A stretch of DNA of 46,062 nt from an uncultured virus (IMG/VR IMGVR_UViG_3300025034_000006) (IMGVR_UViG_3300025034_000006); one strand, 5' to 3'; counted from the first letter of the stretch, positions 1 to 14,896 are shown. Notes: generated by a model not told the origin, from the sequence alone. Program-made: numbers and translations.

Positions 1-97
1 CTAAGTTGTTAACCATCAAAGTGGAAAAACTACTTGACCGAATCACTTGTGCCGCCTAGAAACGAATCACCGCAATCAAGCGGTTGGAGACTTGACC

Positions 98-520
98 ATG
101 CCTAAGTGGCAATACAGTGGCGACCTTGATCTGCGAGAGGGCGGATTCTTCTGGCTGGACAACGGCGATGAAGACTGGGTGGCAGCCGTAAGCGTGACCC
201 CTTGCAGCAGCGCAAGCGGGCCTGACAATCTGTTCTATATCGAGTCGGGCTCGATCTACTTTGCCCGCGATAAGTATGCTGACTATCTGTCAGTGATCGG
301 CATGGAACCGGAAGACGCGACTCGCGAAGACGTGATCTACGCCGCGCACGCCTATGCTGGAATCGAGCGGGACCACGAAACGGTCGTCCGAATTGGTAAG
401 GACGAAAGAGCGTCGGACCCTTGGCGGTGGAACGATTCGGGGTGGAACCCGGAACCCGATGTAGTGCTGCGCGGTAATGCGAGCCTGCAACGTTGGGTTG
501 AACGCGAGTATCTGTCATGA
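98..520 (+). CDS. Hypothetical acidic early protein A (140 aa)
   Basis: GGAGA RBS before ATG 98, downstream of promoter repeat. Confidence 0.8.
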   Translation: MPKWQYSGDLDLREGGFFWLDNGDEDWVAAVSVTPCSSASGPDNLFYIESGSIYFARDKYADYLSVIGMEPEDATREDVIYAAHAYAGIERDHETVVRIGKDERASDPWRWNDSGWNPEPDVVLRGNASLQRWVEREYLS

Positions 521-765
521 ACGCCGATGCAATCGAAGCGGAAGCCGCCGCAATCGCCCAAGCCGTTGCCGAGCGTAAGGCCCGGCCCTATCAGGCCGAT
601 GACAAGGCCCTAGTGGCGGCCTACCTTGCCGCCTCTGGTGTCGCGGGCTCACGCTCTTGGGAGATAACCCCGGAAGCGTTGGACTTGCCCTACCCTGTGT
701 GGGCGGCCATCCGGGCGGCCTACTTCGAAGCCGCGTGCAAGTGGAAGCGGGAGTCCGGCGCATAG
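517..765 (+). CDS. Hypothetical early protein (82 aa)
   Basis: ATGA overlap with upstream gene, followed by hairpin. Confidence 0.75.
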   Translation: MNADAIEAEAAAIAQAVAERKARPYQADDKALVAAYLAASGVAGSRSWEITPEALDLPYPVWAAIRAAYFEAACKWKRESGA

Positions 766-887
766 CCGGGCTCTTTCCCGGTAACCATCCGTTAACCTTA
801 ACAAGTCGTTACCACTAAGTGGAAAAAGTGCTTGACCGAATCGCTTGCGTCACTTAGAAACGAATCAGTTGAAACGGAGACAGACCA

Positions 888-1391
888 ATGCCTGAATTTC
901 AAATGGATAAAGAGGGAACCGTCAATGGGATGGTTTTCGCCGATCTCTCCATGATCTTTCAGGGTTACGTGGAAGCGATGCTTTTCACGGAAAACTCGCC
1001 CGGCAATAGCATGGTCGATTGGCTGGATGATGAAGTGCAGGCAGGCTTGCGGGAAGGCACCATTGACGGCTGCATTCCGGAAGATGCGGGCTGGGGTGAT
1101 ATTCACCCCGAATCGGCTGAGCGGATGCAACTCGATTGCCTTAACTTCGAAGTGCAAGCCCGCGATCTACTGGCGCAAGCCTATGAGCGCGACTATGACG
1201 CGGCGCAAGCGGGCCGGGATTTCTGGTTCACTCGCAACGGTCACGGCGTCGGCTTTTGGGACCGCAAGGAACTGGAAGCGGACGGGCTGGGGGATGCTCT
1301 CACCACCATCGCCGAGTCGTTCGGGCAAGTGTATGTCGATTTCATCGCAGACCCTGAAAGCCCGACCGGTTACGGTTACGTCCACGTCTGA
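888..1391 (+). CDS. Acidic phage hypothetical protein B (motif GRDFWFTRNGHGVGFWDR)
   Basis: RBS, promoter and terminator; motif resembles a recurrent phage hypothetical family (recalled). Confidence 0.85.
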   Translation: MPEFQMDKEGTVNGMVFADLSMIFQGYVEAMLFTENSPGNSMVDWLDDEVQAGLREGTIDGCIPEDAGWGDIHPESAERMQLDCLNFEVQARDLLAQAYERDYDAAQAGRDFWFTRNGHGVGFWDRKELEADGLGDALTTIAESFGQVYVDFIADPESPTGYGYVHV

Positions 1392-1546
1392 GAGGGGAGG
1401 GGCCTTGCGCCCCTCTCTTTTTGTCCGGTAACCTATCGTTAAGGTTAACGTGCCGGCCGATCTTCTTAACCATCAAAGTGGAAAAAGTGCTTGACCGAAT
1501 CACTTGGGTCACCTAGAAACGAATCACTTGAAACGGAGACAAGACC

Positions 1547-2245
1547 ATGAAACTTTTCCCTGATGCCGCCGCCCTCGAATCATCCGGCTATCTTTTCCGG
1601 ATCACTGACAACGGCGGCGAAACCTTTGACAGAATCACCGTCACGTTTTGCGATGGCGACGCGCTCGTTTGCACGCTCGGGACCATTTGCGCCCACGTTG
1701 AACGGGTTGACGTTCAAGTTGACGCAGAAGCCGTCGAATCCGGCGAGGCGCGGGACTTGCGCTGGATTGATCTGGACCCCGGCCTGCAATCGCGCATCCT
1801 TGCCGATCTGAATAACGGCTTTGCGGATTATATCGAAGCCGCGCCCGCAGCCGCGACTCGGGACGAAGCCCGCGACTGGGAAGGGCTATGGGATCACTAC
1901 AGTGATAAACGTTCGCCGATTTATAAGTTGGGGGATTATTATCGCATCCGCGATGATGAGCGCGACAATGAAAACGACGATGACGATGACGCCTTTGAGA
2001 CGCCAGCATTCGCTACGTTCCGGGACGCCTTATTCTACATGTTGCCAACCGACTATGACTTGAGCGGCCCGGAATATCACACCACGGTCGATCTCTGGGA
2101 TACCGAAGGGGGACCGGCTGAACCTTGGGAAAAGGAACAGGATTGCGGTCAATGCGAAGGCACCGGCACAATCGAAGGCGGACCGGGCGGTGATGGGGAG
2201 GATGAGGAATGCCCCGTCTGCGATGGGAAGGGCAAGCAGGGATAA
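1547..2245 (+). CDS. Very acidic protein C with C-terminal DnaJ-type zinc finger
   Basis: CGQCEGTG...CPVCDGKG (CxxCxGxG twice); RBS; terminator. Confidence 0.85.
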   Translation: MKLFPDAAALESSGYLFRITDNGGETFDRITVTFCDGDALVCTLGTICAHVERVDVQVDAEAVESGEARDLRWIDLDPGLQSRILADLNNGFADYIEAAPAAATRDEARDWEGLWDHYSDKRSPIYKLGDYYRIRDDERDNENDDDDDAFETPAFATFRDALFYMLPTDYDLSGPEYHTTVDLWDTEGGPAEPWEKEQDCGQCEGTGTIEGGPGGDGEDEECPVCDGKGKQG

Positions 2246-2404
2246 ACTAGGCGGGCTCCGGCCCGCCTCTTTTCCCGGTAACCCGGCGTTAACCTTAACA
2301 AATCGGACTAAGTTGTTAACCATCAAAGTGGAAAAACTACTTGACCGAATCACTTGTGCCGCCTAGAAACGAATCACCGCAATCAAGCGGTTGGAGACTT
2401 GACC

Positions 2405-2827
2405 ATGCCTAAGTGGCAATACAGTGGCGACCTTGATCTGCGAGAGGGCGGATTCTTCTGGCTGGACAACGGCGATGAAGACTGGGTGGCAGCCGTAAGC
2501 GTGACCCCTTGCAGCAGCGCAAGCGGGCCTGACAATCTGTTCTATATCGAGTCGGGCTCGATCTACTTTGCCCGCGATAAGTATGCTGACTATCTGTCAG
2601 TGATCGGCATGGAACCGGAAGACGCGACTCGCGAAGACGTGATCTACGCCGCGCACGCCTATGCTGGAATCGAGCGGGACCACGAAACGGTCGTCCGAAT
2701 TGGTAAGGACGAAAGAGCGTCGGACCCTTGGCGGTGGAACGATTCGGGGTGGAACCCGGAACCCGATGTAGTGCTGCGCGGTAATGCGAGCCTGCAACGT
2801 TGGGTTGAACGCGAGTATCTGTCATGA
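2405..2827 (+). CDS. Second identical copy of protein A
   Basis: Identical to 98-520. Confidence 0.8.
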   Translation: MPKWQYSGDLDLREGGFFWLDNGDEDWVAAVSVTPCSSASGPDNLFYIESGSIYFARDKYADYLSVIGMEPEDATREDVIYAAHAYAGIERDHETVVRIGKDERASDPWRWNDSGWNPEPDVVLRGNASLQRWVEREYLS

Positions 2828-3072
2828 ACGCCGATGCAATCGAAGCGGAAGCCGCCGCAATCGCCCAAGCCGTTGCCGAGCGTAAGGCCCGGCCCTATCA
2901 GGCCGATGACAAGGCCCTAGTGGCGGCCTACCTTGCCGCCTCTGGTGTCGCGGGCTCACGCTCTTGGGAGATAACCCCGGAAGCGTTGGACTTGCCCTAC
3001 CCTGTGTGGGCGGCCATCCGGGCGGCCTACTTCGAAGCCGCGTGCAAGTGGAAGCGGGAGTCCGGCGCATAG
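2824..3072 (+). CDS. Second identical copy of 82-aa protein
   Basis: Identical to 517-765. Confidence 0.75.
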   Translation: MNADAIEAEAAAIAQAVAERKARPYQADDKALVAAYLAASGVAGSRSWEITPEALDLPYPVWAAIRAAYFEAACKWKRESGA

Positions 3073-3194
3073 CCGGGCTCTTTCCCGGTAACCATCCGTT
3101 AACCTTAACAAGTCGTTACCACTAAGTGGAAAAAGTGCTTGACCGAATCGCTTGCGTCACTTAGAAACGAATCAGTTGAAACGGAGACAGACCA

Positions 3195-3698
3195 ATGCCT
3201 GAATTTCAAATGGATAAAGAGGGAACCGTCAATGGGATGGTTTTCGCCGATCTCTCCATGATCTTTCAGGGTTACGTGGAAGCGATGCTTTTCACGGAAA
3301 ACTCGCCCGGCAATAGCATGGTCGATTGGCTGGATGATGAAGTGCAGGCAGGCTTGCGGGAAGGCACCATTGACGGCTGCATTCCGGAAGATGCGGGCTG
3401 GGGTGATATTCACCCCGAATCGGCTGAGCGGATGCAACTCGATTGCCTTAACTTCGAAGTGCAAGCCCGCGATCTACTGGCGCAAGCCTATGAGCGCGAC
3501 TATGACGCGGCGCAAGCGGGCCGGGATTTCTGGTTCACTCGCAACGGTCACGGCGTCGGCTTTTGGGACCGCAAGGAACTGGAAGCGGACGGGCTGGGGG
3601 ATGCTCTCACCACCATCGCCGAGTCGTTCGGGCAAGTGTATGTCGATTTCATCGCAGACCCTGAAAGCCCGACCGGTTACGGTTACGTCCACGTCTGA
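3195..3698 (+). CDS. Second identical copy of protein B
   Basis: Identical to 888-1391. Confidence 0.85.
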   Translation: MPEFQMDKEGTVNGMVFADLSMIFQGYVEAMLFTENSPGNSMVDWLDDEVQAGLREGTIDGCIPEDAGWGDIHPESAERMQLDCLNFEVQARDLLAQAYERDYDAAQAGRDFWFTRNGHGVGFWDRKELEADGLGDALTTIAESFGQVYVDFIADPESPTGYGYVHV

Positions 3699-3852
3699 GA
3701 GGGGAGGGGCCTTGCGCCCCTCTCTTTTTGTCCGGTAACCTATCGTTAAGGTTAACGTGCCGGCCGATCTTCTTAACCATCAAAGTGGAAAAAGTGCTTG
3801 ACCGAATCACTTGGGTCACCTAGAAACGAATCAGTTGAAACGGAGACAGACC

Positions 3853-4092
3853 ATGCAAACAGCTATTGAACGCCTCAAGGAAGCCGCCAAGGACTCATTC
3901 ATGAAGCCGCAATCCTACATGGGTGCGGACATTCAGGAAGCGATTATGGAAGCCGGGCTCGATCTGGAAGACGACAAGATTTATGCACGCCTCTCGGCTC
4001 CGGGCTATCTCGATTGCACTGATTGGAGCGGTCCCTTCGACACCACGGAAGAGGCCGCACAAGCCTTGCTGGACCTCTACTTCGAAGATTGA
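3853..4092 (+). CDS. Acidic hypothetical protein D (79 aa; YARLSAPGYLDCTDWSGPF)
   Basis: GGAGACAGACC-ATG; terminator after stop. Confidence 0.85.
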   Translation: MQTAIERLKEAAKDSFMKPQSYMGADIQEAIMEAGLDLEDDKIYARLSAPGYLDCTDWSGPFDTTEEAAQALLDLYFED

Positions 4093-4251
4093 GAGTAGGG
4101 GCTTCGGCCCCTCTCTTTTTGCCCGGTAACCAGCCGTTAACCTTAACAGCGTGGTAACTAAGTGGAAAAACTTCTGGACGAATTGGCTTGCGAATCACCT
4201 ACGACTCGCCTATCAAGAGTTCAGCGCAATTCCGCGCTTGGAGACGACCAA

Positions 4252-4701
4252 ATGTCATCACCTTTCCTACCTTCGGTGCAAGAGCAACTACAAGCTCGCC
4301 GCGACGAATCGGACGACGGCTTCGCCTGCGTTCATATCGATACCTGTCTTTCATCCTTTCTGAATGACCACCACAATCGCGATGGCGAATTGCTGCTGGG
4401 CGCAATCGTCTTCGGCGATACTTCCATCGGTGAAGTCAAGAACGAACTGCTGAGCGAGTTCGACTCGGTGGCTTACGATCTGGCTGGTGAGCGTGCTGGC
4501 TATGACCACGACAAGGCTCGGAAAGCGATCCTGCGTGCGTTTGTGGACGTTCATCCCATGGAACTGGACCGGAAAGCTTTCGATCCTTCGCTGGATTTCC
4601 GCGACGAAGAGGACGACGGCTTCGGCTGCGAGGAATACTGTCAAGCGTGGTTCCTCATTACGTGGAACGTTCCGGAAGAGGAGGACGAGACATCGGATTG
4701 A
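4252..4701 (+). CDS. Acidic hypothetical protein (149 aa)
   Basis: GGAGA RBS before ATG 4252. Confidence 0.8.
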   Translation: MSSPFLPSVQEQLQARRDESDDGFACVHIDTCLSSFLNDHHNRDGELLLGAIVFGDTSIGEVKNELLSEFDSVAYDLAGERAGYDHDKARKAILRAFVDVHPMELDRKAFDPSLDFRDEEDDGFGCEEYCQAWFLITWNVPEEEDETSD

Positions 4702-4790
4702 TCGACGCACTCGCCCGCCTAGGTGTGGGCGTCCTCTTCCTTATCCTTGCAACTGGGCTGGCCGCGTGCCAGCCCCTTTTCTTTTGGTAA
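4698..4790 (+). CDS. Putative micro-lipoprotein MIDALARLGVGVLFLILATGLAACQPLFFW
   Basis: TTG overlapping upstream TGA; hydrophobic signal and lipobox LAAC; paralogous to 6543-6656. Confidence 0.55.
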   Translation: MIDALARLGVGVLFLILATGLAACQPLFFW

Positions 4791-4892
4791 CCATTCGTTA
4801 AGGTTAACAACAAGTGGAGTTCGGTGGAAAAAGTTCTTGACCAAATCGCTTGCACCGCCTAGAAACGAATCAGTTGAAACGGAGACAGACCA

Positions 4893-5165
4893 ATGATCAA
4901 AGCAGCAGCAGATTTCAGCCACATCCGCCCGGACGAAGTAGCTGAGTGTTGGGATGGTGTTGACGCCGTTCCCGGCCTTTACAGCGCCCTTTGGGGTTGT
5001 GTGAACGATTACAAGGCCCCGTCGCCGGAAGTATCGGAAGAGCCCTGCCACGGTATGGATTCGGTCGCTGACTTCTGGGATCGGTTCTCGGATGATCACA
5101 AAGAGGCGCTTAACGCCCTCTGCGAACGGCACGCTGAGTTCTGGACCGGCCACGAGGAGTATTGA
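4893..5165 (+). CDS. Acidic hypothetical protein (90 aa)
   Basis: Promoter repeat and RBS. Confidence 0.8.
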   Translation: MIKAAADFSHIRPDEVAECWDGVDAVPGLYSALWGCVNDYKAPSPEVSEEPCHGMDSVADFWDRFSDDHKEALNALCERHAEFWTGHEEY

Positions 5166-5167
5166 AC

Positions 5168-5413
5168 ATGAAGCTATTTTTCGTTGCTCACTTCAACGGC
5201 GAAAACTACGACTTGTTCGTGGTTGCCAACACGGTGGCGGAAGTGACTCAAGTCTGGCGAGACCATTACGAAATGCCGGACGAAACGCCCGAAATGATCT
5301 TCAAGGTAGCTGGCGCGAGCCCGGTCGGATCACGGGAAGAGCCCCATGCCTTCGAATGGCACGGGGTCAATCTCCCACGGGTTGGCGGCTCTCGACCGGC
5401 CAACCCGCGCTGA
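5168..5413 (+). CDS. Hypothetical protein (81 aa)
   Basis: GAGGAG RBS within upstream gene end; terminator follows. Confidence 0.75.
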   Translation: MKLFFVAHFNGENYDLFVVANTVAEVTQVWRDHYEMPDETPEMIFKVAGASPVGSREEPHAFEWHGVNLPRVGGSRPANPR

Positions 5414-5569
5414 GGGGAGGGGCTTTGGCCCCTCTCTTTTTGTCTGTAAAAATTCGTTAAGGTTAACAGCCCGATAACCACTGGAAAAATAAATGGAGAA
5501 AGTGCTTGCGTGAATCGAATCACCGGCCTATTACCGAATCACCGGCACGGAGCCGGAAGGAGAAAGACC

Positions 5570-6016
5570 ATGCAAGACGCCTCACTTTTCAAGCGCCGCG
5601 AAACGACCTTCAACGGCGGCGAATCGACCACTGGGGTTTACATCCCCAAGCAGACCGTCACGATCGGGCGGTGTGTTGATGAAAACGAAGACATCTGGAC
5701 CGTCACAGACGTGAACGGCAAGACCCACCGGGTTGATGGATGCGAGTTGCACCCGCACCCGGAATCCGCGCTGACCAATGTCGAGTTCATGAATCTGGTC
5801 ATGACGTGGTGCAAGACCCCGTTGATGCACGCCTTCATCTTTCAGGCGCTGGATCAATACGCCAAGGCTGTCGTCAAGGCAGACGTGGCGACGCTCGAAA
5901 CCCCGTTCATCGCTGGGGCGGCGTGGCAGGAAACGGCCCGTGAATATATGGGCTTCGCTGTCGCCCGTGAATACGTGGAGAAAGAGCGCCACAAGGAATT
6001 GACTCCGGCCGATTGA
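5570..6016 (+). CDS. Hypothetical protein (148 aa)
   Basis: AAGGAGA RBS before ATG 5570. Confidence 0.8.
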   Translation: MQDASLFKRRETTFNGGESTTGVYIPKQTVTIGRCVDENEDIWTVTDVNGKTHRVDGCELHPHPESALTNVEFMNLVMTWCKTPLMHAFIFQALDQYAKAVVKADVATLETPFIAGAAWQETAREYMGFAVAREYVEKERHKELTPAD

Positions 6017-6186
6017 GCCTTCGGGCTCTCGGCAGAGGGGCAGGGTTTGGTCGCCCTGCCCCTCACCTTTTTCTGGTAGGGACCCGTTAACCTTAACAAA
6101 TAGGGGTGGGTTGTTAATCGTGGAAAAAGTGCTTGACCGAATCAGTGGATAATGGCACCAACGAATCACCACAAAGGAGACAGACC

Positions 6187-6543
6187 ATGCGAATCACTTA
6201 CGAAATTGTGACCCCGGAAAGCGCCGAACAAGGCGACGCCGAAGAACGGGGATTCGTCCTTCCGGCTCGTTTCTTCCATATGAAGGTATCAATCGAACAG
6301 GTCGATGAACTGGATGACTCAGACTTGGAGTGGAGCTTGCGGGACGCTGAACAATACCTAGGCCGTAATGGCATGGAGGATTCCGGTCGCTGGTTTTCCA
6401 CAATTGACCCGGACCGCGATTATCAAACAGGTGCTGAAACCTATGAATCGCTGCACCCGTCGGACAACATCACACCGGCAAGCTACGAACGCCTTGCGCG
6501 TATCTTTTGCTGGGATCGCGACCCTCGACAGTTGCGAAGCTGA
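6187..6543 (+). CDS. Acidic hypothetical protein (118 aa; YEIVTPESAEQGDAEERGF)
   Basis: AAGGAGA RBS before ATG 6187. Confidence 0.85.
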   Translation: MRITYEIVTPESAEQGDAEERGFVLPARFFHMKVSIEQVDELDDSDLEWSLRDAEQYLGRNGMEDSGRWFSTIDPDRDYQTGAETYESLHPSDNITPASYERLARIFCWDRDPRQLRS

Positions 6544-6656
6544 TGGGCTGCCTTGACGCCGTGGCCCGGCTGCTGCTGGGTGTGTTCTTACTGATCATCG
6601 CCGCCGGGGTTGCATCATGCACCCCGGCATTTTTCTTTCTGGTAACGGTTCGTTAA
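6543..6656 (+). CDS. Putative micro-lipoprotein MGCLDAVARLLLGVFLLIIAAGVASCTPAFFFLVTVR
   Basis: TGATG coupling; hydrophobic signal and lipobox-like VASC; paralogous to 4698-4790. Confidence 0.55.
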   Translation: MGCLDAVARLLLGVFLLIIAAGVASCTPAFFFLVTVR

Positions 6657-6764
6657 CCTTAACAGAAGTGTTTCACTTGTTAACCAACTTTGAAGTGGAA
6701 AAAGTGCTTGACCGAAACAGCGAATCACCCTAGACCGGGATCACCAACAACGGAGACAAACCAA

Positions 6765-7163
6765 ATGAGCGAACACGCAATCAGCAATGCACGGGGCTGG
6801 CTCTCGACAATCGTCGGGGCGATGGCCGCGCTGGAAGCCCTGAACGACGGAGCCGAATCGGCTGAGTTCGACGGGGAGACCTTCACCGACCCGGACGACG
6901 TGCAGAACCGGATTCAGGAAATGCCGCTTTCCGTGGAAGTGCGCGACGGATGGCGGGCACCGGGCGGCGAATCGGAGCCGGAAGAGTTCGCGATTCTGCT
7001 CTCGACCGGCGGACCGGCCTTGCGGGTATATGGTGACATCGGCGGCGAACCTTTCTTGCAGTGGCAGGACTGGGGCACGCCGTGGACCACCTACCATGAC
7101 ACCACCGAACAGGAAGACGAGGCCCTGCAAGCCTTTGTCGGAATGTTCTATCTCGGCGAATAA
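6765..7163 (+). CDS. Very acidic hypothetical protein (132 aa; ILLSTGGPALR...WQDWGTPW)
   Basis: RBS, promoter, terminator. Confidence 0.85.
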   Translation: MSEHAISNARGWLSTIVGAMAALEALNDGAESAEFDGETFTDPDDVQNRIQEMPLSVEVRDGWRAPGGESEPEEFAILLSTGGPALRVYGDIGGEPFLQWQDWGTPWTTYHDTTEQEDEALQAFVGMFYLGE

Positions 7164-7332
7164 GGAAAGGCGGGGCAACCCGCCTTTTTCTTTGGGTGTA
7201 AACATTCGTTAAGGTTAACGGAATCGGTCTATCGTGTTAACCATTCTTCAAAGTGGAAAAAGTGCTTGACCGAATCGCTGGAAAATGCGAATCAGGGTTT
7301 ACCGGAAGAGACCGGAAAACAGGAGACAGACC

Positions 7333-7727: not shown

Positions 7728-7855
7728 TTGGTAACCAATCGTTAAGGTTAACAAATTGATGAAATGAGTTAACTATTAAAGTGGAAAAAGTGCTTGACCG
7801 AATCGCTGGGAACGGGCAAACGAATCAGGCGCACTCAAGCGCAGGAGACAGACCA

Positions 7856-8143
7856 ATGCCCAAACTTTACAATGCGGACATTAGCATCACCGCGACCGCC
7901 TATGTGATCGCTGAGAACGAAGACGACGCACGGGAAAAGATTAGCGCCCTTCAAGGGGACTACATCGAATTTTCCGACCGCCGCCAGCAAGTGGCAGACG
8001 ACCTGTTCGTGACCGGCGAAACCTATGGCCCTGATATGCCGAAACTGTCGCTGAGCCCTGCTATGACCATCAACCACAGCGCGACTCGCCCCTATGTCTG
8101 TCTGGTGCAGGAACTGACCGGCGAAGAAGAGGATGTAGGATGA
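7856..8143 (+). CDS. Acidic hypothetical protein (95 aa)
   Basis: AGGAGA RBS before ATG 7856. Confidence 0.8.
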   Translation: MPKLYNADISITATAYVIAENEDDAREKISALQGDYIEFSDRRQQVADDLFVTGETYGPDMPKLSLSPAMTINHSATRPYVCLVQELTGEEEDVG

Positions 8144-8415
8144 TGCACGAAGCCAATCAATCCCGGATCGACTGGGCAAAGAACGCCCTCGATACCTTCA
8201 CCATCGAAACCTATGGCGGACGGCCTTACTCGACGCTTGAAGCGCAATGCGCCGACTGCGAAGAAGGTGAGGGTGACGACTACACGGCCATCCAAGACCT
8301 TATCGGTGATTTGCTCCATGTGGCCCACGAAAGAGGCTGGAACACAGCCGAACTAATCCGGCGGGCGGAAGCCAACTTCGTCTATGAAGCTGCACCGGAC
8401 TATCAAGGCGACTAA
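8140..8415 (+). CDS. Acidic hypothetical protein (91 aa; IQDLIGDLLHVA)
   Basis: ATGA overlap; terminator follows. Confidence 0.8.
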   Translation: MMHEANQSRIDWAKNALDTFTIETYGGRPYSTLEAQCADCEEGEGDDYTAIQDLIGDLLHVAHERGWNTAELIRRAEANFVYEAAPDYQGD

Positions 8416-8750
8416 GGGAGAGGGGCTTCGGCCCCTCTTTGCTTTTTGGTCGTTTTGGATCACCGCCGCTTTGGATCGACGCGACTTTGGATCGCCCCGG
8501 TTTTGGGTTTGGATCATTTCGATTTTCATGATCGCCGCCATTTTGCAGGAGCCCGGACCGACCGACCGAACCAGCCGACCGAGCCCCACGCTCCCCACCA
8601 GCAGATGGTTAACGAAACTGACCAATCTGTTAAGGTTAACGCCGGCGGCCGAATCCGTTAAGGAATATGGTTAACAGATTGGCTGATTTTGTTAACCATC
8701 AAAGTGGAAATAGTGCTTGACCGAATCAGCGAATCGGTCCATACCCGAAT

Positions 8751-8837
8751 GGTAAATGGTTGGACAGCCAGATCAAGGAACTGGATTGCGATTGGGGCGA
8801 CCCTGTTTCACCTGAATGCGAATCGCATCTCTATTGA
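8751..8837 (+). pseudogene. 5'-truncated cassette gene remnant (GKWLDSQIKELDCDWGDPVSPECESHLY*) or 25-aa peptide from TTG 8760
   Basis: Full promoter upstream and terminator downstream, but no RBS or in-frame ATG. Confidence 0.45.
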
Positions 8838-9004
8838 GGGAGCGGGCTTCGGCCCGCCTCTTGGCTGGTAACGGTTTGTTAAGGTTAACGGTCGGCCGGG
8901 ATTTGTTAACCATCAAAGTGAAAAGTAAGTGGAAAAACTGCTTGACCGAATCGGCTTAGACTGGCACTAACGAATCACCGCAATCAAGCGGACGGAGAAA
9001 GACT

Positions 9005-9091
9005 ATGAGCCGACACCAGAAACGCCGCCTTGCCGCCAAGCGTGCGCGCATCGCCATTCTTTCCTCGTGGATCGCAAAGGGCCGCCGCTAA
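9005..9091 (+). CDS. Arg-rich 28-aa peptide MSRHQKRRLAAKRARIAILSSWIAKGRR
   Basis: GGAGA RBS; TAATG coupling to next gene. Confidence 0.7.
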   Translation: MSRHQKRRLAAKRARIAILSSWIAKGRR

Positions 9092-9357
9092 TGGCTGGCT
9101 TCTGGGATCGCGTGGACACCCTCGAAATGGTGGAACTCTACGCCGAGGACAACGGCCAGATTGCCAGCGAAGAGGAGCTTTCCAAGCGCTTTGACGAAGA
9201 AGTGCTTCCCGATGTGATCGCACACTACGGCGAAAACGATTCGGTTGCTATCAATGAAGAATTTAGCAACTGGTCGGACATGCTGTGTAAGGACGGCGAA
9301 ATTCACCCGGAACAATACAATTCGTATTGCTACGTTGGAAAGCTGGCAGACGACTAA
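9091..9357 (+). CDS. Very acidic hypothetical protein (88 aa; NWSDMLCKDGEI)
   Basis: Coupled start; hairpin after stop. Confidence 0.8.
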   Translation: MAGFWDRVDTLEMVELYAEDNGQIASEEELSKRFDEEVLPDVIAHYGENDSVAINEEFSNWSDMLCKDGEIHPEQYNSYCYVGKLADD

Positions 9358-9468
9358 GGCGAGGGGCTTAGGTCCCTCACCAAACTTTTTTTTTGTAATT
9401 AGTGGAAAAAGTGCTTGACCGAATCGGTTGGTTCGCCTAGAAACGAATCAACAGCAACGGAGGCAGTC

Positions 9469-9573
9469 ATGCAGATCAACACCTACCACGTTTACATCAA
9501 CAACACCTTTTCCGGGATCATCTCGGCGGTGTCTTACCGGCAAGCGCGCCAGCGCGCTAAGGCCAAGGTTTGA
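9469..9573 (+). CDS. 34-aa peptide MQINTYHVYINNTFSGIISAVSYRQARQRAKAKV
   Basis: Own promoter, GGAGG RBS and terminator; similar to N-terminus of 14031-14303. Confidence 0.75.
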   Translation: MQINTYHVYINNTFSGIISAVSYRQARQRAKAKV

Positions 9574-9735
9574 GGGGAGGGGCTTCGGCCCCTCTTTCTT
9601 TTTGCCCGGTGAAATTTGTTAACCTTAACGAATATGGTTAACAAATTGACGTTTGGGGTTAACTATCAAAGTGGAAAAAGTGCTTGACCGAATCGGTGAC
9701 TCGTGCGAAAACGAATCATCAATCGGAGACAGATC

Positions 9736-9867
9736 ATGCAAAACATCCGCAAGAATCCCATTGCCGCCTCGCTCGCCAGCGCTCACCTCGCCCCTCGCAA
9801 GGTTCGCGCTCGTAAAGGCAAGGGCTCTTTCCGCCGCAACCCCAAGCATCGGGGAGTGGCGGCATGA
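9736..9867 (+). CDS. arfA: ArfA-like (alternative ribosome-rescue factor A) peptide, 43 aa
   Basis: MQNIRKNPIAASLASAHLAPRKVRARKGKGSFRRNPKHRGVAA matches the ArfA pattern N.I.A.L....F..R....KKGKGSY.R..KH; RBS GGAGA; below ORF-track cutoff. Confidence 0.7.
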   Translation: MQNIRKNPIAASLASAHLAPRKVRARKGKGSFRRNPKHRGVAA

Positions 9868-10046
9868 GCCGCGCTCGCAACACCCTCGACTCCCGCTATA
9901 GCGTGCGCCTCGAATGGTGCGGACGTGCGACGCAGCAATGGGTTGCCCGCTTCTGTGGTGATTGGCTCGGATGCGACTCGACCCGCTCGGGCGCTGAGGA
10001 AATCGCCCGTCTGTATGAGCGCGACCGCTGGAGCATGGCAGCATGA
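9864..10046 (+). CDS. Hypothetical protein (60 aa)
   Basis: ATGA overlaps at both ends, GGAG RBS. Confidence 0.75.
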   Translation: MSRARNTLDSRYSVRLEWCGRATQQWVARFCGDWLGCDSTRSGAEEIARLYERDRWSMAA

Positions 10047-10387
10047 GCGACCGCATCCGCCCCGTGACTTTCGACTCGGCCCAGATCGAGCCCTTTGCTG
10101 CTCGCATCATCGGCATAGCCGCTTCGCAATTCTGTCGCCTCAAAGAGCGCGAGAAAGAGACCGGAGAGAAGTCGGACCCCTTCGACATGGAAGATGCTCT
10201 TATGCATCTCTGGTGGGCTCTCAAGGGGCTTGATCACATTGCAATAGCGTTACGCGGCGGCAGGGACTGCGACGACGTGTCAGGCGTTCATTTTTCCATG
10301 GTGATGAATGCGGAACACAGCAGGATTCGCCGCCTCATCATGGAAGAACTTGGAGTCGATCCCGGATCGCATCCGCGCTGGAAATGA
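10043..10387 (+). CDS. Hypothetical protein (114 aa)
   Basis: ATGA overlap; terminator follows. Confidence 0.75.
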   Translation: MSDRIRPVTFDSAQIEPFAARIIGIAASQFCRLKEREKETGEKSDPFDMEDALMHLWWALKGLDHIAIALRGGRDCDDVSGVHFSMVMNAEHSRIRRLIMEELGVDPGSHPRWK

Positions 10388-10594
10388 GGGGCTTCGGCCC
10401 CTCTCTTTTTGCCCGGTAACCCCACGTTAAGGTTAACCGATCGGGCGAAGTTGTTAACCATCAAAGTGAAATTGAAGTGGAAAAAGTTCTTGCACGAATC
10501 AGCGAATCGCCCTAGACCCGAATCACCGGGCGGCACCTACTGACTGGCAGAGCAGCAGCAAGGCTCGCCCGGTAACTCACACAGGAGACAGGCT

Positions 10595-10756
10595 ATGTTC
10601 GAAGTCAAGACCACCCTGCGGACCTACAAGGTCGAAGCCAATCACATCAACGCCGCTTTCATCGCCGCAAACGTGCTGGCAGTGGAAGGCGAAGAAATCC
10701 TTTCCGTGGCCTATGCTGGGCCCGTCACGTTCATCATCGTGGAGATCGCGGCATGA
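10595..10756 (+). CDS. Hypothetical protein (53 aa, MFEVKTTLRTYKVEA...VEIAA)
   Basis: AGGAGA RBS; ATGA coupling to next gene. Confidence 0.7.
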   Translation: MFEVKTTLRTYKVEANHINAAFIAANVLAVEGEEILSVAYAGPVTFIIVEIAA

Positions 10757-10971
10757 TCAGCAAGAAAGATGCCATCGCCAAGGCAATCGCGGCTGGAGCC
10801 TCGGAGGAGGAAATTGATCGCCAAGCCGCAAACTACGTCCGCCAAGTCGGCACCGTGCCTTTCAACAACATGATTCGGGCTCTCAACATCGGCCCTTGGC
10901 ACAACACCGTTGACGACTGGACTCGGCTGGCAGCAGCCCTGACCGCGAGGGGATTGGCGCGAAAGCGCTAA
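10753..10971 (+). CDS. Hypothetical protein (72 aa)
   Basis: GGAGA RBS, coupled start. Confidence 0.75.
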   Translation: MISKKDAIAKAIAAGASEEEIDRQAANYVRQVGTVPFNNMIRALNIGPWHNTVDDWTRLAAALTARGLARKR

Positions 10972-11091
10972 TTCCTTAACGGAATTGATGAATTTGTTAA
11001 GGTTAACGCGAATTAAGAATAAAGTGGAAAAAGTGCTTGACCGAATCAGTTAACCATCCTAGAAACGAATCAACAGCAACGGAGACACACA

Positions 11092-11304
11092 ATGAAGATC
11101 AAGATCAAGACCACCGCTCGCTACACCGCAAAGCGCAAAGCCGCCATCATCGCCGATGTGGACAACGGCACCACCACCCTCGAAGACGTTTGCAGCCTGC
11201 ACAACATCACAAGCGAAGAGTTTGCTGGCTGGCGTAAGTCGCTGGATCGCTCGGGACAGCAGGGGCTTCGGATCACTCGCCTGCAACACTACCGGGCAGC
11301 ATAA
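11092..11304 (+). CDS. sciP: SciP/DUF1153-family CtrA-inhibitor homologue (70 aa)
   Basis: RYTAKRKAAII...G...LEDVC....TSEEFAGWRKSLDRSGQQGLRITRLQHYR aligns without gaps to the SciP core RWVIRRKAEVV...G...L.EAC..Y.LT.EEF.SWQ..IDRHG..GLR.TRIQ.YR (recalled). Confidence 0.88.
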   Translation: MKIKIKTTARYTAKRKAAIIADVDNGTTTLEDVCSLHNITSEEFAGWRKSLDRSGQQGLRITRLQHYRAA

Positions 11305-11454
11305 GGGGAGGGGCTTCGGCCCCTTTTCTTTTGGCCTTAACCCAGTGTTAAGGTTAACAGATCAGCCGAATTAGTTAACCAATTAGCTGGAAAAAGTGCT
11401 TGACCGAATCAGCGAATCACCTTAGACCCGAATCACAAACAACGGAGACAGACC

Positions 11455-11697
11455 ATGCGTTTTCTTTCTGCAACCCTTATGGCCCTCGGCCTTTTAGCTG
11501 GTTATGGTGCTTTCTACATGACAGCGAACATTGACCTAACCCCGCTCGCCCCTGAGGCCCGGACCGTCACCCAGATGCTCTTTAACGCCCTTGCTATGTG
11601 CGGGCTTTGCCTGCCCGCCTTGTCGATGCTAGCGCTGCACGACGACGCAAACTTGCGCCGCCAGTATCCCCACCGCTATCGCAAGAATCGCCGCTAA
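11455..11697 (+). CDS. Small membrane protein (80 aa, two hydrophobic segments)
   Basis: Promoter repeat and RBS; hydrophobic stretches with basic tail. Confidence 0.75.
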   Translation: MRFLSATLMALGLLAGYGAFYMTANIDLTPLAPEARTVTQMLFNALAMCGLCLPALSMLALHDDANLRRQYPHRYRKNRR

Positions 11698-11861
11698 TGG
11701 AAACGCTGGCAGAATATCGCCACAAGCGCGACCGGGCAATCGTTCAACGCCGCATGGGCGAAGAGCGCCGCCGCCACGTCAATCAATGCGTGGCTGACAT
11801 CATCGCACAAGGTAAGATGGAAGAGCGCCGCCAGACCATCCGCCGGGAGGAAGATCAATGA
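11697..11861 (+). CDS. Arg/Glu-rich helical peptide (54 aa, METLAEYRHKRD...)
   Basis: TAATG and ATGA couplings. Confidence 0.65.
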   Translation: METLAEYRHKRDRAIVQRRMGEERRRHVNQCVADIIAQGKMEERRQTIRREEDQ

Positions 11862-12058
11862 CAGACCGCCGATTCGTTATCGTGGAAAACGCCGGATATG
11901 AAGGCGAAAAAGACATCACCCACTTTCTCACCTTGCGGGAGGCATTCGCCTATCAGCGCGGCCATTATGAGCCGGACGAGATCGAAGAATTGCACGTCGA
12001 TATTCGCCAAGACTGGACGGACGAAAACGGCGATTTTCATCAGGAATATGTCTATTAG
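11858..12058 (+). CDS. Acidic hypothetical protein (66 aa)
   Basis: GGAGG RBS, coupled start. Confidence 0.75.
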   Translation: MTDRRFVIVENAGYEGEKDITHFLTLREAFAYQRGHYEPDEIEELHVDIRQDWTDENGDFHQEYVY

Positions 12059-12125
12059 GTGGAAAAAGTGCTTGACCGAATCGATGGACTATGCGAAAAC
12101 GAATCATCGAAACGGAGACAAGCAA

Positions 12126-12320
12126 ATGACCACCATCCTGATCCTCGCAATCGCCTTCCTGATCACCGCCACCGTGGCAATCATCAAGGCCCGCGCCGAA
12201 CTCGCCGCTCACGCCGCCGAACAGGCAAGCAAGCATATCCCCAACCCAACCGAATACACCGGCCCGCGCTTCACCGCACATGGCCGGGAAATCCAACAGA
12301 CCGGACGCCGGATCATCTGA
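12126..12320 (+). CDS. N-terminally membrane-anchored protein (64 aa)
   Basis: GGAGA RBS; MTTILILAIAFLITATVAII; terminator. Confidence 0.75.
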   Translation: MTTILILAIAFLITATVAIIKARAELAAHAAEQASKHIPNPTEYTGPRFTAHGREIQQTGRRII

Positions 12321-12476
12321 GAAAGGGGCGGGAGAAATCCCGCCCTTTTCTTTGTCTGGTAACCGGGTGTTAAGGTTAACAAAACGGTTAAATTCGTTAA
12401 CCATCAAAGTGGAAAAAATGCTTGACCGAATCGGCTGGTATGTTTAGACCCGAATCACTGGAAACGGAGACAGACC

Positions 12477-12674
12477 ATGAGCAATTCCACCGAACAAGCA
12501 ATGGCCGCCGACCTCGACCTTTGCGACATGATCCTTGCATTCGGAACGCCTGCCGCCAAGCGCAAGGCCCGCGCCCACCGCAAGGCTTGTTTCGCAGAAA
12601 TCGCCCGGATGAACGCCGAGTCTGGGACTGACAAGCTGAGCGATGATGAATTACTCGCCGAATTGATGGCCTGA
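12477..12674 (+). CDS. Hypothetical protein (65 aa)
   Basis: Promoter repeat and RBS. Confidence 0.8.
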   Translation: MSNSTEQAMAADLDLCDMILAFGTPAAKRKARAHRKACFAEIARMNAESGTDKLSDDELLAELMA

Positions 12675-12862
12675 CAGGAACCGGCCCCTGACAACAGGGG
12701 CCGGGACCCTAATTCACTGAGAAAAGGGGCCGGGCTCCAAAATCGTAAATTCAGGTTAACCTTAACCGATCGGCCGAAATCGTTAACCATCAAAGTGGAA
12801 AAAGTGCTTGACCGAATCGGCTGGCGCGTTTAGACCCGAATCACTGGAAACGGAGCCAGACC

Positions 12863-13138
12863 ATGGAAAGATTCGAACTGACAGGCTCGGGCATCAGCGA
12901 CGGGCAGAATCCGGAAAAACTGCTTGCCGCCGCGAAAAAGTGCGGCCTTCACAATCCCCGACTCGCCTATCACTTCGGCTGGTCGAATCAGCCGAAAACG
13001 ATTCGTTTCAGCGCTGAAAGCTGGGAAGCTGCCGATAAGGTCGCCGATCTGGTGCGAACCGAATTTTACCCGGAAAATGCCGAGGGCCGTTTGTGCCCGA
13101 TGATTCGGGCCTATCCGGTGAAAGCCCCGGAAGCCTGA
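12863..13138 (+). CDS. Hypothetical protein (91 aa)
   Basis: Promoter repeat, RBS, terminator. Confidence 0.8.
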   Translation: MERFELTGSGISDGQNPEKLLAAAKKCGLHNPRLAYHFGWSNQPKTIRFSAESWEAADKVADLVRTEFYPENAEGRLCPMIRAYPVKAPEA

Positions 13139-13311
13139 TCCCGGAAAAGCCCGATTCGCCGAATCGGGCTTTTTCTTTGGCGGTAATCTCTGGTTAACCT
13201 TAATAAAACGGCGAAATTCGTTAACCCTAAAAATCGGGATTTTCTGGAAAAAGTGCTTGACCGAATCGGCCTTTTCTGGAAAAACCGAATCACCGCAAAC
13301 GGAGAAATGAC

Positions 13312-13467
13312 ATGATCACCATGGAAGCGATTATCGGGGGCCTTATTTCGGGGTTCGCTGTGCGCCTCTATGGTGCAGGACTGGCGCTCTATGTGGGCCT
13401 GTGTGCGAGCGACCTTATCAGCAGCACCCTTGCCAGCGCCACGGCTACCCTAGACACCCTACCCTAA
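13312..13467 (+). CDS. Hydrophobic 51-aa peptide (MITMEAIIGGLISGFAVRLYGAGLALYVGLC...)
   Basis: GGAGA RBS after last promoter repeat. Confidence 0.65.
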   Translation: MITMEAIIGGLISGFAVRLYGAGLALYVGLCASDLISSTLASATATLDTLP

Positions 13468-13536
13468 CCTACTCTGTCCTGCCCGGCCTAGGCTGTGTGC
13501 GCGGCTCTCGGCTGCTATGGATCAAGGTCATTTTAG

Positions 13537-13662
13537 GTATGCGTGCGTGTGCGCGTGCGTGCGTGTGCGCCTGTGCGTGCGCCTGTGCGGGCGCGTGCGC
13601 CTGCGGGTGTGCGCGCCTGCGTGTGTGTGTGCATGTGTGCGCGTGCCTGCCTAGGCGCGCAC
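13537..13662. repeat. Alternating purine-pyrimidine (GT/GC) low-complexity tract
   Basis: Uninterrupted RY alternation at 13537-13570 and 13618-13646. Confidence 0.9.
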
Positions 13663-13665
13663 GAG

Positions 13666-14024
13666 GTGGAAAAACAAACTCACAAACTAATTCATTTTGT
13701 TATTGATTTGGTAACGAATCCCTGCGATAAAGGGACATCGAAAGCGAACGGAGACAAGACCATGTTCAAGATCATTGACACCGCAAACAACAGCGAATGC
13801 CTTGGTAGCTATGAAACCCGCGCTGGGGCAGACTACGGGCTCGGCATGGTAGCTTGTGGACGTGGTAACGACTCGGGCTTGCGTATCGTCAACCAAATGA
13901 CTCATTGCGTAGAAGTGCCCGCCACGTTCTAAGTAGTGGAAAAACAAACTAACAAAATAATTCATTTTGTTATTGATTTGGTAACGAATCCCTGCGATAA
14001 AGGGACATCGAAAGCGAACGGAGA
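13666..14024 (+). promoter_or_regulatory. Two near-identical 89-bp variant promoters (13666-13754, 13936-14024): TTGATT-N17-GATAAA with AT-rich UP-like element and GAATC in spacer
   Basis: -35 at 13703 and 13973; each followed by GGAGA RBS and ATG. Confidence 0.8.
13762..13932 (+). CDS. Hypothetical protein (56 aa, MFKIIDTANNSECLGSYETRAGA...)
   Basis: GGAGACAAGACC-ATG. Confidence 0.75.
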   Translation: MFKIIDTANNSECLGSYETRAGADYGLGMVACGRGNDSGLRIVNQMTHCVEVPATF

Positions 14025-14030
14025 AACAAC

Positions 14031-14303
14031 ATGACCAACCTGATCCCCACCTTCCGCGTTTACAAGAACAAGGTCCTTGTCGGCACCGTGTCGGCAACCA
14101 CCGAACAGCAGGCCCATGCCCGCGCATACGGCAAGTATGGCCGCTGCGAAGTCATGAAGGCTGACATGGAGCGCCGCCTTAGCACTAGCGGCCGTGTGGA
14201 GCGCGCTGACAGCAGCTTCACCCATGGCCGCAGCCCCTACCCCACCCCCGGCTTTGAGGCACGCCGTGCCGCTGAAATCGCCCGCTGGAAAGCGGGCGAA
14301 TAA
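14031..14303 (+). CDS. Basic hypothetical protein (90 aa)
   Basis: GGAGA RBS; last gene of early array. Confidence 0.8.
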   Translation: MTNLIPTFRVYKNKVLVGTVSATTEQQAHARAYGKYGRCEVMKADMERRLSTSGRVERADSSFTHGRSPYPTPGFEARRAAEIARWKAGE

Positions 14304-14896
14304 GCCCACCTTAACAAACGTTAACCTAAACGAAGGGCGAGTCGAGTGATCGACTCGCCCTTCCGATTCGCGTGCGAATCGAATCGATTCGTTCCTTTGC
14401 GAAAAAATTTGACCCCCTAGGGGACCCAAAGGGGTTTACCCCCACCTGAAAAAATCGGCCCTCTTAGCTCCTACATGAATCAAAACAGGTAGACATTCTC
14501 ATATAGCTGTGCTAGTATCCCTGTCCATGGTCAACTAAGATCATGCAGCAAGTGGAGGGGGACCCAACGACCCTCCCATCACGCCCAACTCCCAACAAAA
14601 CCACCCGTATATTATATATTTTTTCATCACGCCCACTAAAGCTTTGATCCCCTCATCACTCCCATCTCGGCAAACCGGCGAACCGGCAAACCGACCAAAA
14701 TGGTGACATGACGATCCGGTAATAGCCGTCGTGATGATATGTATTTTTGCGACCCACCGGGGGACCCAAAGGAGGGGGACCCATCGCCGGGGGACCCCGA
14801 TGGCGATACACCGCCATTATTACGTGACAGTGATGCACCTTAGCTGTGATGCAGTGGTGTCTTCCTGACGGATGCCTATCTTCCCCACCAAAATGA

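Follow-up and report, generated by a model that had tools for sequence, protein, structure and literature searches.

The first part of a 46,062-nucleotide stretch of DNA from an uncultured virus (IMG/VR IMGVR_UViG_3300025034_000006; the whole stretch is called the window here) is occupied by 24 small-gene cassettes encoded on the same strand (1-14391, + strand), which run from the start of the window to a non-coding stretch before phoH, and whose control regions combine boxes resembling the sites of the alphaproteobacterial regulator CtrA with GANTC sites resembling those of GcrA and the methylase CcrM; one of the cassettes encodes a relative of a further regulator, SciP. The array comprises about 30 open reading frames (ORFs) of 28-232 amino acids (aa), and no Pfam family was recognized in 28 of the 30 that were scanned. 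The remainder of the window codes for PhoH, portal, scaffold, major head, HNH, tail and tape-measure proteins. With the window as megablast query, the only matches were to two Erythrobacter phages, XM05 (80.8% identity, 15% query coverage) and vB_EliS-L02 (hereafter L02), and to a 44-bp piece of Caulobacter phage CcrBL9. L02 is described as a Cbk-like siphophage in its own paper, and in the text of that paper open to a term search none of the words CtrA, GcrA, SciP and methyltransferase occurs. The window very probably shows the early-gene cassette array of a phiCbK-like siphophage with a Sphingomonadales host of the Erythrobacter type.

The units were anchored on an A-tract with a -35 hexamer (GGAAAAA...CTTGAC), which has 25 sites on the + strand of 1-13300; the one at 12924 lies inside an ORF, lacks any other feature of the unit, and was dropped. 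In the 24 units the first T of the -35 hexamer is at 34, 832, 1491, 2341, 3139, 3798, 4175, 4837, 5506, 6133, 6708, 7266, 7794, 8717, 8942, 9415, 9684, 10490, 11037, 11400, 12072, 12422, 12808 and 13257. A full unit begins with a G+C hairpin and a T-run, continues with GGTAACC-N4-GTTAA(CC or GG)TTAAC, 15-25 variable nucleotides (nt), GTTAACCATCAAA and GTGGAAAAAGTGC, and proceeds through TTGACC, GAATC(A/G), about 12 variable nt, CCTAGAAAC, GAATCA and about 10 nt to GGAGACAGACC and the ATG. The core promoter is composed of the A-tract and TTGACC-N17-TAGAAA, flanked by two CGAATC(A/G) sites, and is followed by a short leader with GGAGAC as the Shine-Dalgarno sequence and by the small ORF. Start sites were placed by taking the -10 hexamer at +23 to +28 from the T of TTGACC (17-nt spacer) and assuming the start about 7 nt later. 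Because 2,307 bp are duplicated in tandem (1-1540 = 2308-3847), three genes are present twice and the units 34, 832 and 1491 recur at 2341, 3139 and 3798, so that three units are second copies and 21 of the 24 are distinct. In a probable source run, the contig over 1512-3191 has a depth of 34.9 compared with about 16 elsewhere; the extra depth could be due to a real duplication, to a further copy upstream of the window, or to a terminal-repeat effect.

Of the 24 units, 21 have a GANTC site 5-6 nt downstream of the T of TTGACC (site 1), 21 have a second one at +26 to +32 (site 2), and 19 have both, within 40 bp of the presumed start. A GTTAA(SS)TTAA box is found at most 130 nt upstream in 21 units, a regular expression of the (G/T)TAA-N7-TTAA type matches in 16 (the start of the window truncates one unit), and 14 have a proximal TTAAC(C/T)A. 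The earlier note on this DNA had described the early promoters as combining an upstream box, TTAAC half-sites and two GAATC sites; this holds to the extent of the 16 and 19 units just given, and fails for the strict TTAA-N7-TTAA form, which is almost absent. Chance expectations were obtained from 100 first-order Markov simulations of 2308-14400, a region in which the duplicated copies count once. It contains 105 GANTC words (54.4 +/- 6.6 simulated), 52 CGAATC[AG] on the + strand (3.4), 16 [GT]TAA-N7-TTAA (0.3), 12 TTAACCAT (0.2) and 17 GTTAASSTTAAC (0). Since the units are copies of one module, these excesses prove a repeat family and not 24 independent events or independent selection. Better evidence comes from the variation within the unit, from the relatives, and from the depletion of GANTC in the rest of the phage. 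In the information profile of the units, TTGACC and GAATC are fixed, while the spacer and leader vary.

The upstream boxes were examined with the probability matrices for CtrA and SciP published by Fumeaux et al. 2014 (supplement file 4, parts 3-4; PMC4083442), which were derived experimentally from Caulobacter. In the scan with a CtrA motif against simulated controls that had been proposed as a check, the CtrA matrix gave 24 matches of at least 10 bits in 2308-14400 compared with 1.08 simulated (maximum 6), and 13 of at least 12 bits compared with 0.10, whereas in the structural half of the window (14401-46062) it gave 2 compared with 1.8, i.e. the chance level. The matches correspond to the GGTAACC-N4-GTTAA box and are intergenic, located directly after the preceding terminator and before the next promoter. 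The SciP matrix, derived from chromatin immunoprecipitation (ChIP; (G/A)TTAACCAT(A/G)), gave 24 matches of at least 12 bits in the same region compared with 0.71 expected; they coincide with GTTAACCTTAAC, in both its orientations, and with the proximal GTTAACCAT, which precedes the -35 hexamer by 27 nt; among the GTTAA-SS-TTAAC copies of the array 9 are of the CC and 12 of the GG orientation. In the account of Zhou et al. 2015, the TTAACCAT 'SciP motif' is a CtrA half-site and purified SciP protected other sequences; since the motif is thus disputed, we read all boxes of the array as CtrA-type. This reading is supported by two independent comparisons. The terminal-repeat promoters of CcrBL9 have an unrelated core (TTGACA-CGCAT...), yet the same GTTAACCTTAAC/GTTAAGGTTAAC and GTTAACCAT boxes upstream. 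In Sphingomonadales, GTT(T/A)A(C/A)C is located directly upstream of sciP in 60 of 73 loci, and the 59 alignable loci have a common box aTGAAc-N5-GTT(T/A)ACC, of which the Croceibacterium form is GTTAACCTTGAT; in Caulobacter, CtrA/MucR have been described to target the sciP promoter.

For a few phages it is already established that CtrA controls their genes. Mascolo et al. 2022 (PMC9437464) report that in phiCbK-like phages the predicted CtrA sites are concentrated in the terminal repeats, ahead of small genes of unknown function, that phosphorylated CtrA (CtrA~P) binds such sites in electrophoretic mobility shift assays, that the promoters of phiCbK gp005 and gp018 and of Cp1R7A-A1 gp19 need CtrA in reporter assays, and that matrix-predicted clusters also exist in Lacusarx, a Sphingobium phage, and in MMDA13, a Sphingomonas phage (repeat TGCGTTAACCAT). 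Any novelty of CtrA sites in phages is therefore void, as these were published with binding and reporter assays. The array resembles those clusters, which occupy terminal repeats or gap regions in phiCbK-like and other alphaproteobacterial phages and were discussed there as 'lytic deferment', in being a dense, intergenic, single-region cluster before many small genes of unknown function in a phiCbK-like siphophage, in sharing the GTTAASSTTAAC and GTTAACCAT boxes with CcrBL9, and in having the Sphingomonadales precedents Lacusarx and MMDA13. It differs in its half-site, which is GTAA and not TTAA, in boxes placed far upstream of a near-consensus -35 hexamer, and in location, the XM05 array lying between terminase and phoH/portal and not in an annotated terminal repeat. 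It adds a GcrA-consensus GANTC pair and a SciP-like gene, and no Erythrobacter phage figures in the text of Mascolo et al.

The GANTC sites conform to more than the pentamer. The consensus of GcrA is given as TGATTCG, or more broadly YGAKTCK, by Haakonsen et al. 2015, and the reverse complement of CGAATC(A/G), (T/C)GATTCG, fits it exactly. Of the promoter-core GANTC sites, 42 of 44 fit YGAKTCK, every one with GAATC on the top strand, compared with 19 of 75 in the control region 14401-46062, which equals the 25% expected by chance. When promoters were collected by a TTGAC anchor blind to GANTC, which drops those with another -35 hexamer (18 of the 21 units of 2308-14400 are kept), site 1 was present in 15/18 promoters of the window, 23/26 of XM05 and 23/26 of L02, site 2 in 15/18, 21/26 and 21/26, and the 7-mers fitted the GcrA consensus in 33/34, 47/50 and 50/53 cases, respectively. 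In L02, site 1 is shifted by one base (TTGACGAATC) yet retained. Counted from the presumed starts, the centre of site 1 is at about -27/-28 and that of site 2 at about -3, with an extra site at about -19 in six units; in unit 6708 site 1 is lost and a site at +14 (about -19) is present. According to Wu et al. 2023, GcrA boxes of the spacer have their centres at -20 +/- 1 and -30 +/- 2, and others theirs at +5 to +30, and Zhou et al. 2015 place the GANTC of ctrA P1 at -28/-29; with the starts as placed here, site 1 would be at about the position of the ctrA P1 site, on the edge of the -30 class, and the -19 site would fit the -20 class. Like the GcrA-activated, CcrM-methylated sigma70 promoters of Caulobacter (ctrA P1, PcsM and mipZ in the accounts of Haakonsen et al. 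2015, Wu et al. 2023 and Zhou et al. 2015), the units have the exact extended consensus, with GAATC on the top strand as in PcsM. They differ in being phage promoters, present in about 20-30 copies per genome, and in having as a rule two sites per promoter where most GcrA promoters have one.

Outside the array GANTC is depleted. In 14401-46062 it occurs 75 times compared with 179 +/- 12 in first-order simulations, and among the 16 abNb'a' words, none is depleted as strongly when expectations are taken from a second-order model (75 compared with 140, z = -5.7); in the 86 kb of a near-identical virus record of 96.8 kb (G001) that lie outside the array, it occurs 251 times compared with 395 +/- 17. 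According to Gonzalez et al. 2014, GANTC is scarce overall and kept at promoters in CcrM-bearing Alphaproteobacteria, and the pattern of GANTC words in the phage mirrors that of such host genomes. The promoters of CcrBL9 lack the pair (4 of 23 have GACTC overlapping the -35 hexamer), so that the GANTC pair is a trait of the Sphingomonadales-type clade and not of phiCbK-like phages generally.

The SciP-like gene (11092-11304, + strand) encodes 70 aa and belongs to Pfam family DUF1153 (PF06627; 71.5 bits against a gathering threshold of 23.5, E = 6.5e-20). Its helix-turn-helix core exhibits 44-53% identity to Sphingomonadales SciP and keeps the conserved residues R10, R15, K16, A17, G26, E42, E43, W47, R53, G55, G58-L59-R60, T62-R63, Q65, Y67 and R68. 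Among 1.84 billion representatives 1,694 relatives were found. The best 80 cellular relatives in a scan with an alignment as query are nearly all from Sphingomonadales. Seven IMG/VR contigs from the clade of the window phage carry the gene at 86-100% identity. Its promoter (control region 10983-11072, + strand, with both GAATC sites) is the only one in the array whose -35/-10 spacer contains a GTTAACCAT box (its TTAA at about -22 to -19), and this box is kept in the sequences of four distinct relatives while the upstream flanks differ; in XM05 the gene is the second of its cassette and there is no spacer box. The promoter P1 of ctrA, described by Zhou et al. 2015 as activated by GcrA and repressed by CtrA, has a TTAA half-site in its core at -14, and, judged by sequence, the combination of a GANTC near -28 with a TTAA half-site in the core gives the promoter of the SciP-like gene the plan of ctrA P1.

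The same design recurs in related phages. XM05 has at least 25 such units between terminase and phoH, and the more diverged L02 has about 26-30 with TTGACGAATCA...(A/C)CGAATCATCGG and, as in the window, the box GGTAACC-N4-GTTAASSTTAAC. In exact form, the word TTGACCGAATC-N17-21-CGAATCA of the promoter was found in 113 IMG/VR stretches, always in one-strand arrays among the matches listed, and among these at least 21 contigs, of up to 176 kb, contain it. The window stretch itself is present in about 20 aquifer DNA metagenome runs, which may be its source, and two wastewater runs (X21 and X22) contain relatives 90-99% alike. One aquifer RNA-library run has 9 contigs of at least 99% identity on the early ORFs; DNA carry-over is possible there, and no inference on expression or starts is drawn from them.

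As to the proteins that might read the promoters, neither a GcrA gene nor an N6_N4 (CcrM-type) methylase domain was found in G001 or in the complete genomes of XM05 and L02, and the phage search found no sigma70 region 2 domain, so the readers would be host proteins; a search for a T7-type RNA polymerase was also blank, as it was in control genomes, and is uninformative. The possibility that the host lacks these regulators, named at the outset as what would speak against the idea, was examined in a genome of the host type, Croceibacterium salegens (G002), in which CtrA (424 bits), GcrA and SciP are all present; it stands in for the host of the aquifer phage. A full-length SciP above the family cut-off is encoded in 97 of 101 sampled genomes of the same family.

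We regard it as likely that the units are promoters read by the host and equipped with CtrA-type boxes. A role of GcrA and CcrM, to which the consensus fit and the depletion elsewhere point, has in our judgement an even chance, and an action of the SciP-like protein through CtrA is possible, with our estimate leaning slightly against it. The whole reading, in which three inputs (CtrA, GcrA with CcrM, and the phage SciP-like protein) control the early cassette array, we consider to be evenly poised. In this scheme, for which the start sites, the early timing, the binding of CtrA, GcrA and SciP, the methylation and the direction of regulation are inferred, each cassette would be a self-contained unit of terminator, regulator boxes, strong host sigma70-type promoter, leader and small ORF, and host RNA polymerase with sigma70 would read all units early. 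CtrA would occupy both the GGTAACC-N4-GTTAA(SS)TTAAC box, which precedes the start by about 90 nt, and, at about -57, the GTTAACCAT half-site, and would most likely activate, by analogy with phiCbK. GcrA-carrying RNA polymerase would be helped onto the promoter by CcrM-methylated CGAATC(A/G) sites, and since this loading uses methylated sites, promoter strength would depend on the methylation of the incoming or replicating phage DNA. The SciP-like protein, which lacks the N-terminal arm of SciP, would damp CtrA-dependent promoters of both the phage and the host, and its own promoter, with a TTAACCAT box in the core, would be shut by CtrA or by CtrA and the SciP-like protein together. Early expression, host gating, the disabling of CtrA and the titration of CtrA/GcrA, all proposed in the earlier note, are conjectural in the same way. 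The phrase 'cell-cycle rewiring' is Caulobacter-centric; with a Sphingomonadales host the signal read would probably be a motility or lifestyle state rather than a cell-cycle stage, as the discussion of Mascolo et al. 2022 (PMC9437464) indicates.

A number of observations weigh against this scheme. The -10 hexamer of TAGAAA type is called on what we take to be the alphaproteobacterial -10 consensus, and a promoter/terminator scan of E. coli type found 5 sites compared with 6.8 expected, none of them a unit. The cores are near-identical within the window phage and within XM05 and also between the two, so the enrichment over shuffled sequences partly measures the repeat itself. Strict TTAA-N7-TTAA occurs only once in 2308-14400, the upstream half-site being nearly always GTAA (usual form GTAA-N7-TTAA), and the CtrA-like box is 39-88 nt (mode 53) upstream of a near-consensus -35 hexamer, unlike in the CtrA promoters of Caulobacter, where it overlaps the -35. 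Two of the 24 promoters, 9415 and 12072, have both GAATC sites and no boxes. On the presumed starts, site 2 (about -3, directly after the -10 hexamer) is outside every described GcrA class and site 1, at -27, is on the edge of -30 +/- 2; Haakonsen et al. 2015 report almost no GcrA sites around -10 in Caulobacter, and Mascolo et al. 2022 (PMC9437464) report GcrA and SciP motifs without positional skew in their phage set. The dispute over the SciP motif and the stand-in status of the host genome, both mentioned above, belong here as well.

The SciP-like protein has its own difficulties. It scores 67.7 bits against the NCBIfam model NF051866, 'CtrA inhibitor SciP', whose cut-off is 100, and aligns with model positions 28-90 of 90 only. 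Of its nearest cellular relatives examined, which are longer than 70 aa, 31 of 34 reach at least 100 bits (up to 141) and 3 score 88.0-96.5, whereas the phage-sized relatives (64-70 aa) score 52-90 against the same cut-off. In the alignment, an N-terminal arm of about 27 residues (G-x-x-G...L-P-P-P-x-T) is absent from the window protein and its phage relatives; cellular SciP has about 90-100 aa, and the phage form is borne by phages while the hosts retain the full-length one. The gene is also absent from the complete genome of L02, which has the promoters without it, so that it is not an obligatory part of the module. A predicted complex of Croceibacterium CtrA with the SciP-like protein obtained a score of 0.00 with controls not folded, which is uninformative either way. 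The claims that the array has GcrA/CcrM sites at fixed positions and that a cassette encodes a SciP homologue thus survive in part: the former for the exact YGAKTCK fit and for site 1 at the ctrA P1 position, leaving site 2 in no GcrA class, and the latter for membership in the DUF1153/SciP family, below the cut-off for SciP equivalogs and with the arm absent.

Among the other explanations, the one that fares best, which we nevertheless consider unlikely, is a plain repeated promoter-terminator module that spread by duplication or recombination, its TTAAC and GAATC words being copied along or serving as optimal polymerase contacts (UP-like tract, spacer, discriminator), with no part for CtrA, GcrA or CcrM. 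In line with it are cores that are almost identical from one unit to the next and from the window phage to XM05, the 2,307-bp tandem duplication, the lack of a GcrA class for site 2 and the two promoters that work without boxes, if they work at all. So are the breaks of assembly contigs at the units, and, more weakly, the contigs of the wastewater relatives over 1-14400, which join the cassettes in different orders with the breakpoints at promoter units, the joints being short-sided; this is a weak hint that the array repeats may act as recombination points for the shuffling of cassettes. In T4-type phages, promoter-plus-stem-loop repeats flank small early-gene cassettes and can serve as recombination points, a likeness in the repeated promoter/terminator modules; the T4-type repeats are not known to carry host-regulator or methylation sites. 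However, copying alone does not account well for a GAATC that stays constant while the spacer and leader vary within the unit, for the retention of both sites in L02 despite a diverged core and the one-base shift, for the lost site 1 that is accompanied by a site at about -19, for 42 of 44 sites that fit YGAKTCK in one orientation compared with 25% elsewhere, for the selective depletion of GANTC in the other 86 kb, or for the same box before unrelated core promoters in CcrBL9.

It is rather more improbable, in our estimate, that the boxes are operators of a phage regulator, either the SciP-like protein alone or another small early protein, which would close the array once the early phase is over, with no part for host CtrA. 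As a 5+5 inverted repeat found in both orientations, GTTAA-SS-TTAAC is typical of the operator of a dimeric helix-turn-helix protein, the ChIP-derived SciP matrix has its 24 matches against 0.71 expected, and the spacer box in the promoter of the SciP-like gene is kept in relatives. Yet L02, whose complete genome lacks a DUF1153 gene, has about 39 such boxes in 30 kb. The same boxes occur in CcrBL9, and for sites of its phage group binding of CtrA~P was observed in vitro (Mascolo et al. 2022, PMC9437464). The sequences that purified SciP reportedly protected are different ones (Zhou et al. 2015), and the 28 of 30 scanned small ORFs without a recognizable family offer no other candidate regulator. 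Restriction pressure from a HinfI-type host system, with the promoter sites as tolerated leftovers, is very improbable: GANTC is under-represented in the 86 kb, and another palindrome, GTAC, is clearly avoided (absent from 14401-46062, where 68.5 would be expected, and present once in the 96.8 kb of G001), but more than 100 GANTC in 12 kb of array would defeat avoidance, GANTC is at about 0.55-0.64 of expectation, as in CcrM-bearing hosts and not totally lacking like GTAC, and the promoter sites have fixed positions, a single orientation and extended flanks. The near-total avoidance of GTAC is itself as expected from a GTAC-cutting restriction system.

Individual control regions, all on the + strand, vary around the common plan. 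That of cassette 1 (1-69) is cut by the window start and has a proximal GTTAACCAT box at 7-23, a core at 21-69 and both GAATC sites; its complete copy (2275-2376) has a CtrA-like box of 12.7 bits and both GAATC. The region 778-867, with a CtrA-like box of 13.9 bits, GTTAACCTTAAC, a TTGACC promoter and two GAATC, is duplicated at 3085-3174, and 1425-1526, with a box of 13.4 bits, GTTAAGGTTAAC, a proximal TTAACCAT and two GAATC, is duplicated at 3732-3833 up to the promoter, behind which a different gene follows. A variant core in 4123-4210 is read as TTGCGA-N17-TATCAA, with a GAATC overlapping the end of the -35 hexamer as in L02 and none after the -10. The best CtrA-like box (15.2 bits) belongs to 4784-4872, in which site 1 is lost (CAAATC) and site 2 kept; 5443-5541 has a TTGCGT -35 and three GAATC (+6, +11 and +30), and 6073-6168 has a weak box of 9.0 bits and both GAATC. 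In 6639-6743, site 1 has become GAAAC, GAATC is present at +14 and site 2 reads GGATC; in 7195-7301 site 1 is present and the second GAATC is at +23; 7728-7829 has a box of 15.0 bits and both GAATC (site 2 at +28).

Further along, five iteron-like direct repeats of about 16-18 bp, starting with TTTGGATC and spaced by 16-22 nt (8454-8544), precede a cluster of four matrix matches of 13-21 bits, arranged as a 30-nt inverted repeat (8598-8700), with the ORF-less promoter 8717 (8598-8752 in all); a terminator-like hairpin is found near 8840-8866, downstream of that promoter, and 8454-8870 is a candidate for a non-coding RNA or an origin-like region. The region 8865-8977 has a CtrA-like box of 13.0 bits, a proximal box and both GAATC, 9402-9450 is a promoter core with both GAATC and no TTAAC boxes upstream, 9605-9719 comprises GTTAACCTTAAC, ATGGTTAAC (20.2 bits with the TTAACCAT matrix), a proximal box and the promoter, and 10413-10525 has a box of 12.0 bits, a TTGCAC -35 and three GAATC (+6, +14 and +30). 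Behind the SciP-like gene, 11334-11435 has a box of 14.4 bits (TTAAC-N6-GTTAA) and three GAATC, 12059-12107 is a promoter core right behind a stop codon, with no terminator, no boxes and both GAATC, 12356-12457 and 12742-12843 have the full set (box, proximal box and both GAATC), and 13180-13292 has a box of 12.9 bits and both GAATC. A different promoter, TTGATT-N18-GATAAA, is found at 13666-13740, where one CGAATCC is in the spacer (centre about -21) and a CtrA-matrix match of 11.3 bits overlaps the -35 hexamer, and in a second copy at 13936-14010; a G+C-rich low-complexity run of GTGCGCG/GCGTGCG-type units (13530-13650) separates these from the last standard cassette. The array ends (14297-14392, no strand assigned) with TTAAC boxes of 9.6-10.6 bits, a hairpin with a 14-bp stem (14332-14363) and four GANTC in 28 bp (14365-14392; GATTCGCGTGCGAATCGAATCGATTCG).

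A few other features were noted. All five GGGGACCC words of the window are within 378 bp (14420-14797) of the non-coding stretch before phoH, a count that is not significant (5 compared with 2.25, reached in 6 of 100 shuffles); similar GGGACCC repeats are located upstream of gp003 in the terminal repeat of CcrBL9. A 167-aa cassette protein (888-1391 and 3195-3698; PHROG 1915, 112.9 bits) has 44 bp at 93% identity to the region of the CcrBL9 terminal-repeat gene gp038 (L211 20021-20677), so at least one cassette gene may be common to phiCbK-like phages of different host orders. A 43-aa cassette ORF (9736-9867, + strand) has a match of 30.8 bits to the Pfam family ArfA (alternative ribosome-rescue factor A; cut-off 25.5, E = 2e-7) and none in NCBIfam; a phage-borne ribosome-rescue factor would be unusual. 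Rfam searches of 1-15000 gave nothing above the thresholds and three weak matches under the gathering scores, among them one to the suhB/mmgR small RNA at the 3' end of a cassette (4706-4791, + strand; 28 bits against a gathering score of 41), which is probably due to chance.

As outlined above, the fixed GcrA-type GANTC pair and a SciP-like gene in a phage appear not to have been described in print. Our literature search found no report on GANTC or GcrA sites in phage promoters, its matches, judged from titles and the starts of abstracts, concerning host biology, and none on a phage SciP homologue. If the reading with host regulators is true, a promoter family with exact GcrA/CcrM sites would bring the epigenetic arm of alphaproteobacterial regulation into phage biology. 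In the boldest form of this idea, which we hold to be improbable, a clade of Sphingomonadales phages of 150-176 kb would have built its early promoters on the plan of ctrA P1, the CcrM mark of the previous host on virion DNA and the CtrA activity of the new one would together set how strongly about 25 early genes are fired on entry, and the arm-less SciP would close the loop on CtrA; inherited DNA methylation would then serve the virus as a memory of the state of its last host. Since XM05 and L02 have cultured Erythrobacter hosts, every step is testable at the bench. With their sites at about -27, -19 and -3, the roughly 70 promoters of three phages that are cultured or nearly so form a natural series on which the position rules of GcrA could be tested, and the SciP-like protein offers a minimal SciP for dissecting the role of the N-terminal arm.

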